DNA of 64,000 bases. Origin: Escherichia coli. Its GTDB lineage: Bacteria > Pseudomonadota > Gammaproteobacteria > Enterobacterales > Enterobacteriaceae. The stretch lies in assembly GCF_050920415.1 (NCBI RefSeq), contig NZ_CP169310.1, one strand, 5' to 3'. This document shows positions 4,611 through 4,868 of this stretch, one piece after another. The number at the start of each line of letters is the position of its first letter. Within the stretch, counting starts at the first letter, position 1. The translations under genes and the position numbers were made by a program. The notes under the pieces are model-generated. The model saw only the letters and a program-made list of their open reading frames with translations. It did not search any database and had not been told where the DNA came from.

Positions 4611-4868
4611 GGGGTCAGTTTGGATATAGAGAATTATTGTACGGTAAGCCTGTTTTTTTGAACAGGCTTACCTATCGCGATAGGGTGTACTCCCGCGCTA
4701 TACGCTGTTTTCAGGGGATTTGAACTCAATCGGATAACCTAAATGCAATACCGCAATGGCGATAATTTAAAAGCGATAGCCGTTGACGCAAAATCAATCC
4801 GTTACGCATCTCTATTGGTTAAATAATGCGCTTAACGTACAAAATTTTCCCATATCCAAACTGACCCC
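4611..4868. mobile_element. 258-bp miniature element with Tn3-family-type 38-bp terminal inverted repeats (TIME/IS101-like), non-coding
   Basis: Ends GGGGTCAGTTTGGATATAGAGAATTATTGTACGGTAAG (4611-4648) and its imperfect inverted copy at 4831-4868 (31 of 38 identical); GGGG...TAAG architecture as in Tn3 repeats but a different sequence from the adjacent transposon; no ORF inside. Confidence 0.7.

Follow-up and report, generated by a model that had tools for sequence, protein, structure and literature searches.

The 64,000-nt stretch of Escherichia coli DNA analysed here (hereafter the window) carries at positions 4611–4868 a 258-bp element of the MITESen1 family, a non-autonomous, Tn3-derived inverted-repeat miniature element (TIME) without transposase. 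In the account that we favour, and to which we assign a probability of about 0.85, this element is a scarred copy of a MITESen1-family TIME, its interior corresponds to the res region of a parent transposon, and the family originated from a Tn3-family transposon of the type found at locus L114, on a plasmid of Edwardsiella anguillarum.

The miniature element and its family

A repeat search delimited two inverted arms of 48 nt, 4611–4658 and 4821–4868, which are 79% complementary. Their outer 38 bp, starting with GGGG and ending with TAAG, constitute the left terminal inverted repeat (IRL, 4611–4648, plus strand, GGGGTCAGTTTGGATATAGAGAATTATTGTACGGTAAG) and the right one (IRR, 4831–4868, minus strand), identical at 32 of 38 positions; the two repeats differ from each other at six positions, and each differs from the repeat of the candidate parent at 3–4. 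The terminal 21-mer GGGGTCAGTTTGGATATAGAG, allowing up to three mismatches, occurs within the 64 kb solely at the two ends of the unit, and its expected count in shuffled sequence is 0.00, so that the similarity of the ends is not a product of chance. No transposase or other coding capacity was found in the 258 bp, the longest stop-free stretch in any frame being 36 aa, and the 64-kb window contains no second copy of the element, stray repeat or parent-type tnpA or tnpR gene apart from the neighbouring transposon.

The element displays Tn3-type repeats, a length below about 500 bp without transposase and an occurrence in many unrelated contexts with homology ending at the repeats, all features of TIMEs. 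The feature that the window copy does not display is the 5-bp (occasionally 6-bp) target-site duplication: TATAT on its left faces TACCT on its right, because the right flank has been replaced. PLSDB contains about 1,400 full-length copies, whose homology in many contexts goes no further than the ends of the repeats; the element is therefore a discrete unit rather than what a local deletion left behind. It is plausibly mobilisable in trans. The sequence-only reading of this DNA, which had described a Tn3-derived miniature element with 38-bp GGGG...TAAG inverted repeats, no transposase and a perfect 12-bp-stem palindrome, is borne out on each of these points: the repeats were reproduced on alignment (32/38), no stop-free stretch exceeds 36 aa, the palindrome is exact (12/12) and the repeats match, at 34–35 of 38 positions, those of a transposon encoding a Tn3-family transposase (NF033527). 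The further copies with 5-bp duplications and the transposase-bearing relative that it had proposed to look for were also found, as 1,404 near-full PLSDB copies with duplications at some relatives and as the L114-type transposon with its 34–35/38 repeats, and the case that it had named against itself, a unit occurring solely inside a larger deleted transposon, is contradicted by the roughly 1,400 full-length copies.

MITESen1 was reportedly first described by Pong and Hall in 2021, on a Salmonella IncX1 plasmid. The window element is colinear end to end with the 256-bp MITESen1 sequence, 229 of 258 alignment columns being identical (88.8%) with two 1-bp gaps; the IRLs are identical (38/38) and the IRRs agree at 35 of 38 positions. 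The two share a hairpin at the same position and the same interior blocks, and both are plasmid-borne in Enterobacterales, whereas they differ by two extra bases in the window element (258 versus 256 bp) and by a C–A mismatch in the hairpin of the MITESen1 reference, where the hairpin of the window element is perfect. The element is a member of the MITESen1 family and not a new kind of element; at 88.8% it lies below the isoform-level identity of at least 95%, and within the family it is best treated as a variant or subfamily of its own.

In ISFinder, MITESen1 is classified as a TIME, and its 256-bp sequence is given in Table S2 of a recent survey (Gomi and Yano, 2026; PMC13367494). This survey applied cut-offs of at least 95% identity and at least 95% coverage (Gomi and Yano, 2026), so that copies like the window element were not counted, and the published prevalence of MITESen1, 2.3% of genomes (Gomi and Yano, 2026), probably understates the family, the identity cut-off missing such variants. 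MITESen1 has been reported flanking qnrS1, floR and qnrD1, with the 5-bp duplications TAATA and TATAT around composites (Gomi and Yano, 2026), and it has also been published flanking blaNDM-1. Other members of the same class, with 38-bp GGGG repeats, less than 400 bp and no transposase, are TIME244, IMU and TIME1–4. TIME244 and IMU have their origin in the Tn21 subgroup, and their interiors are unlike that of the window element; TIME244 has a putative res as well, and its repeat matches those of the element at 21–23 of 38 positions.

A blastn search of PLSDB gave matches in 4,308 plasmid records. Coverage of the element reaches at least 80% in 1,404 records, mostly from Escherichia, Klebsiella, Salmonella, Enterobacter and Citrobacter. 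When a 1.5-kb context was used as query, the whole context was recovered in three plasmids only, and elsewhere the match stops no more than about 5 bp from the repeat ends. Among complete E. coli genomes, 232 of 5,426 have a near-full copy, and relatives occur in about a quarter if fragments are counted; the E. coli matches number 1,649 on plasmids versus 21 on chromosomes. Many E. coli IncF plasmids (H165–H175, H156–H160) carry fragments only, either an IRL stub of 32 or 38 bp at 95–100% identity or copies truncated to positions 63–258. Relics of the element are much more numerous than intact copies. None of the records inspected bears an annotation of the element.

Duplications of 5 bp surround three of 15 copies from other genera (TTACA in L072, AAATA in L019 and TTCTT in L056), and of 11 larger units with these repeats at their ends, five show duplications of 5–6 bp; in the closest subfamily, examined in the window copy, L123–L126 and L131, no duplication was found (0/6). 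The predominance of duplication-free copies fits frequent exchange of flanks at these elements, and the varied contexts suggest that the window variant has been mobile. Relatives of other lengths include a 2,375-bp unit with the same repeats in Escherichia sp. (L079:1139–3513, 6-bp duplication AATGTT), the 314-bp copy of Rouxiella flanked by TTCTT (L056:2343–2656), the 227-bp copy of Hafnia flanked by AAATA (L019:4949–5175) and a 161-bp copy in Acinetobacter idrijaensis (L103:2251–2411). Deletion and composite derivatives have arisen several times independently within the MITESen1 family.

The candidate parent transposon and the res-like interior

A scan for the shared terminal 17-mer, in one genome per species, identified at least 120 loci. 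Among the matches listed, some belong to unrelated phyla, at the chance level expected for a 17-mer, most of those in Enterobacterales are alike over only about 48 bp, corresponding to the end of something larger, and several loci have paired ends 3.8–9.3 kb apart. The best example of a parent among these listed matches is L114:1523–8423, a transposon of 6,901 bp on the E. anguillarum plasmid NZ_CP006665.1 that is flanked by a perfect AATTA target duplication. It encodes an intact 995-aa TnpA of the Tn3 family (L114:1546–4533; NF033527, 1125 bits) and, from a divergent tnpR gene (L114:4701–5336), a serine recombinase of 211 aa (PF00239 plus helix-turn-helix), with a tnpA–tnpR intergenic region of 167 bp, and its passenger genes are devoted to formaldehyde detoxification. 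Four further units bounded by parent-type repeats have duplications of 5–6 bp. The core of this transposon is identical across Edwardsiella plasmids and at least 99.9% identical in plasmids of Serratia, Enterobacter and Klebsiella; over at least 80% of its length, matches were found in 560 records of PLSDB and 123 of the 5,426 E. coli genomes. We found no name for it: RefSeq/PGAP gives only 'Tn3 family transposase', and the literature covered on formaldehyde-resistance Tn3 transposons and on the repeat sequence, which did not extend to Pong and Hall (2021), is silent. A contig of a metagenome-assembled genome labelled Bacteroidetes (L011, JAEWAN010000026.1) carries tnpR and tnpA of the parent type, about 95% identical to those of Enterobacterales at the aa level; the contig is most probably mis-binned or contaminating and not a genuine occurrence in Bacteroidetes.

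The parent repeat, read at the tnpA-side end of L114 and at both ends of L081, is identical to IRL at 35 and to IRR at 34 of 38 positions. For comparison, the repeat of the transposon adjacent to the element in the window matches IRL at 26/38 and IRR at 28/38, the repeats at the two ends of IS101 match each of them at 19–21/38, and the Tn3 repeat matches them at 18/38 and 20/38. The parent candidate and the element thus share repeats (34–35/38) and, as detailed below, a homologous res-like region, and they differ in that the former is autonomous, measures 3.8–9.3 kb, contains tnpA, tnpR and passengers and is devoid of the 12-bp hairpin. These sequence relationships make the L114-type transposon the likely parent of the element and its proposed source of TnpA and TnpR.

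The interior of the element was also compared with this transposon. We built an nhmmer profile from 17 family interiors, which are 70–100% identical to one another, and searched seven parent copies; the sole significant match in each was the tnpA–tnpR intergenic region (E-values from 5e-10 to 1.5e-6), the homologous part of the element being 4661–4780 (plus strand). The same profile found no match in the window with the element masked. In Smith–Waterman comparisons, the interior scored 35 against the parent versus a mean of 16.4 for dinucleotide shuffles (z = 8.3), a score that none of 1,000 shuffles reached, whereas it showed no similarity to the res of the neighbouring transposon (1112–1271) in either orientation (z = 0.2 and −0.7). 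MAFFT alignment placed element positions ~44–172 colinear with the parental intergenic region; identity to it is about 60–75%, varying by block. No source was found in the parent for the remaining ~40 bp of the interior, 4783–4820.

The best-aligned block, 4733–4781 (34/45 identical, z = 8.3), contains on the plus strand three direct repeats of the motif (A/T)(T/A/G)GC(A/G)ATA, starting at 4743, 4757 and 4771, thus with a 14-bp spacing, which are putative accessory resolvase-binding sites. These three repeats recur, again 14 bp apart, in the parental intergenic region, which has a total of five ATGCGATA-like sites, versus 0.16 expected; the repeats of the element are likewise ATGCGATA-like. 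Upstream of them, at 4673–4702, lies an imperfect palindrome, TATCGCGATAGGGTGTACTCCCGCGCTATA, that aligns with the parental palindrome TATCGCATAAGGGTACACCC..GCCATA, near-perfect in its L081 version, and that we regard as a candidate for a res site I-like crossover site; its core is 2 bp longer than that of the parent. Across copies 70–100% identical and from many genera, no interior blocks are better conserved than the palindrome and the three motif repeats; the majority-fraction conservation is 0.81–0.89 for the interior versus 0.93–0.96 for the repeats. A copy from Xenorhabdus (L086) combines parent-type repeats with a parent-type palindrome and is thus an intermediate bridging the parent and the miniature forms.

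Because the interior profile matches the parental intergenic region alone, the element can be described as two repeats around a res-like site, as in IS101. The 209-bp IS101 of pSC101 has the same architecture, two Tn3-family repeats around the res of a parental transposon, and an interior homologous to the parental res region is found in both cases. The parent of IS101 is gamma-delta (Tn1000), which mobilises and resolves it in trans, the logic that we propose for the present element too. Apart from the repeat framework (19–21/38) the two sequences are unrelated, and parent and resolvase differ; the res of IS101 is experimentally proven and functional (Ishizaki and Ohtsubo, 1985, as cited in PMC13367494), whereas that of the window element is a putative one, predicted from position and homology. 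Gomi and Yano (2026; PMC13367494) saw no similarity between the MITESen1 interior and well-characterised res sites and left the question open. What we add to this picture is modest and consists of a candidate parent transposon and a res-like interior, neither of which we found in the available literature, Pong and Hall (2021) not being part of it.

The perfect palindrome at 4643–4672 has no counterpart in the parent. It consists of 12-bp arms, GGTAAGCCTGTT (4643–4654) and AACAGGCTTACC (4661–4672), exact at 12 of 12 positions, separated by a 6-nt loop, and overlaps the inner end of IRL. The hairpin is kept in 15 of 17 family copies, is extended to 16 bp in L024 and shows a compensatory C>T/G>A change in L124; it is missing from the end of the parent and from L086, the most parent-like copy. 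It would seem to be a derived trait that the clade has conserved.

The neighbouring transposon and the insertion site

A Tn3-family transposon occupies positions 475–4289 (plus strand), 321 bp from the miniature element, with inverted repeats at 475–512 and 4252–4289, tnpR at 521–1111 on the minus strand and tnpA at 1272–4256 on the plus strand. Its TnpA is 73% identical to that of the candidate parent and its TnpR 29% identical, and from these comparisons the adjacent transposon is a cousin of the parent. The sequence-only reading had called the element distinct from this transposon, a statement that stands for the repeats (26–28/38) and for res, which differs, and needs qualification for the transposase, in view of the 73% identity to that of the parent. 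In the plasmid CP012498, the element is found within the same flanks without the neighbouring transposon, which indicates that the two arrived independently. Tn3-family transposases with comparable repeat divergence, such as those of Tn3 and gamma-delta, generally do not cross-complement. Given this precedent, cross-mobilisation of the element by the neighbouring TnpA would be unlikely at such a divergence of repeats.

No target duplication was found at the neighbouring transposon (ATCTT at 470–474 versus ATATA at 4290–4294). Its right flank, from 4290 onwards, is contiguous in the transposon-free CP012498, and the left flanks differ; flanks without duplication and a contiguous right flank place this transposon, too, at a recombination joint. 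The gap between both elements is filled by a minus-strand ORF of 116 aa (4253–4603; 97 aa in RefSeq, WP_136759862.1), which overlaps the IRR of the neighbour and whose longest start lies 8 bp from the IRL of the miniature element. This ORF has no NCBIfam or PADLOC match, and the 320-bp gap segment was found by megablast in a handful of plasmids only.

The miniature element itself lies in an IncFII backbone. Its left flank is a conserved 24-bp backbone remnant (4587–4610, plus strand) made of TTACCACG and TATATACACAGTATAT. Element-free IncFII plasmids (L132–L134) read ACCACGTATATACACAGTATATAACGATTCAG uninterrupted, in the order ATTACCACG TATATACACAGTATAT AACGATTCAG, followed by ori and repA. 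The insertion point is ...GTATAT^AACG..., directly after the second TATAT: the conserved backbone ...ACCACGTATATACACAGTATAT^AACG... is interrupted at the element and resumes at 7527, about 26 bp of it being replaced by the element, the tetranucleotide TACC and an AT-rich block (4873–7526). The TACC (4869–4872, plus strand) represents 4 bp of an earlier right flank. In CP012498 (L131, reverse complement), window positions 4290–4872 are contiguous and are followed by 2,101 extra bp before the sequence continues from 4873 onward, so that the junction 4872/4873, 4 bp from IRR, is a deletion endpoint.

The AT-rich block lies between the element and the IncFII ori/repA, with a GC content that falls to 27–29% around 6400–7200. 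Its ORFs (5064–5540, 5596–6219 and 6339–7463) are all on the minus strand and gave no matches in PADLOC, NCBIfam or Pfam, the 374-aa ORF being without a Pfam match; a relative of the region of this last ORF is annotated as 'HEPN domain-containing protein' in CP024864. In L127, which has no such element, the block adjoins this same repA backbone, and in all four element-free plasmids examined (L127–L130) it continues without a break across 4872/4873. These island-bearing plasmids do not span the insertion point, and the empty site is found in ordinary IncFII backbones. No second repeat was detected at the far end of the island. Because of the element-free islands, the 2,101 extra bp of CP012498 and this lack of a far-end repeat, the element is located at a recombination or deletion (mosaic) joint and not at the terminus of a transposed island. 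The suggestion that it marks the acquisition boundary of the island therefore holds in part: the element does sit where the IncFII backbone breaks, but L127–L130 and CP012498 show that this is not a clean terminus. Most simply, the joint would have been made in two steps, an insertion into the IncFII backbone and then a recombination or deletion that replaced the right flank. Rather than a fresh insertion, the window copy is a long-standing, scarred resident.

A 94%-identical copy in a Klebsiella pneumoniae plasmid (L126:3001–3257, CP071821) is associated with the same backbone 16-mer, TATATACACAGTATAT, in the same orientation, but it lies 11 bp further upstream, at the other of the two TATAT pentamers. 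On its left, where the region of an IS3-family element has taken the place of the original flank, it is bordered by CTGGTA; the window-type copy in CP012498 is flanked by TACCAG, the reverse complement of this hexamer. For the location of the 16-mer on the opposite side in L126, an inversion in situ or a circular intermediate was considered and then rejected, since the 16-mer is backbone sequence that contains TATAT twice. The window and L126 copies are more simply explained by two independent insertions at a distance of 11 bp, and the situation suggests a local hot-spot for insertion on the border of the IncFII replicon.

Origin, alternative readings and significance

By internal deletion, an L114-type transposon could have given rise to the family. 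The tnpA gene may have been lost by a deletion, possibly between short TTTTT(T)(G/A)AC repeats, and a second deletion would have removed tnpR and the passenger genes; the alignment of a synthetic 'mini-parent' suggests the tnpA deletion between these repeats and shows the retention of about 60 bp of the right end. The parental TnpA would then bind the repeats in trans and promote replicative transposition, generating a 5-bp duplication and a cointegrate, and the latter would be resolved at the res-like site of the element by the parental serine resolvase, or else by RecA. We propose these steps because they are established for the Tn3 family and IS101.

How far the interior still contributes to this cycle is where an alternative carries most weight. 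The element could be a genuine MITESen1-family TIME with an interior that is a decayed, non-working relic, its cointegrates being resolved by the host RecA, a reading that we consider rather doubtful, at odds clearly below even. It draws on the identity of only ~60–75% to the parental region, on the site I-like core whose length differs from that of the parent, and on the lower conservation of the interior relative to the repeats (0.81–0.89 against 0.93–0.96). It draws also on the three published MITESen1 composites, in which all copies are in direct orientation (Gomi and Yano, 2026; PMC13367494), an arrangement that frequent exposure to a cognate resolvase would make unstable, and whose direct repeats appear to be stable. 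Pulling the other way, the palindrome and the three motif repeats are precisely the blocks best conserved among copies from many genera, the spacing of the motifs has been kept exactly, and IS101 offers the precedent of a functional res in such an element; on this basis, a res still working in the miniature element may be envisaged.

Two further readings question the mobile unit itself or its affiliation. The proximity of the neighbouring transposon, 321 bp away, the 73% identity of its TnpA to the TnpA of the repeat-matching family and the shared GGGGTC..TTGGA...ACG.TAAG framework of the repeats (26–28/38) would all be expected if the element were a degraded derivative of this neighbour, or were mobilised by it, the two forming one functional pair. 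We nevertheless judge such a pair very improbable: the repeats differ at 10–12 of 38 positions, versus 3–4 for the L114 family, the interior does not resemble the neighbouring res (z = 0.2), the resolvases are only 29% identical, CP012498 has the element in the same flanks without the neighbour, and cross-complementation is generally not seen at such repeat divergence. Even harder to sustain, and in our opinion scarcely credible, is a non-mobile structure (a structured non-coding RNA gene, a terminator or a plasmid regulatory palindrome) with ends inverted by chance. A perfect 12-bp-stem hairpin kept in 15 of 17 copies, with a compensatory change in L124, would suit such a structure, as would its frequent proximity to rep or par regions in IncF plasmids, but the region 4200–5300 has no Rfam match at E ≤ 1, promoter and terminator scans stay at chance level, there is no T-run after the hairpin on either strand, and the hairpin variants do not consistently favour pairing on one strand. 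Canonical Tn3-family repeat ends, hundreds of unrelated contexts and some 5-bp duplications also speak against it. The reading that we retain is thus that of a MITESen1-family TIME with an interior related to the res of an L114-type parent.

Beyond this reading, we propose tentatively, and at a little less than even odds, that MITESen1 elements are portable res sites for the uncharacterised serine resolvase of a common, unnamed Tn3-family transposon, and hot-spots for the shuffling of plasmid modules. If so, they would act as hot-spots of site-specific and homologous recombination besides transposing. This would account for the majority of copies without target duplications, for their positions at mosaic joints, here the border of the IncFII replicon, and for the independent copies at the same backbone pentamers 11 bp apart; the clade-specific 12-bp hairpin, absent from the parent, would be a further acquired functional feature. 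By itself, the window element is an ordinary, scarred copy. The candidate parent and the res-like interior make the question that the survey left open about the MITESen1 interior experimentally testable and, if this res works, MITESen1 elements would be relevant to the assembly and exchange of resistance regions between plasmids.
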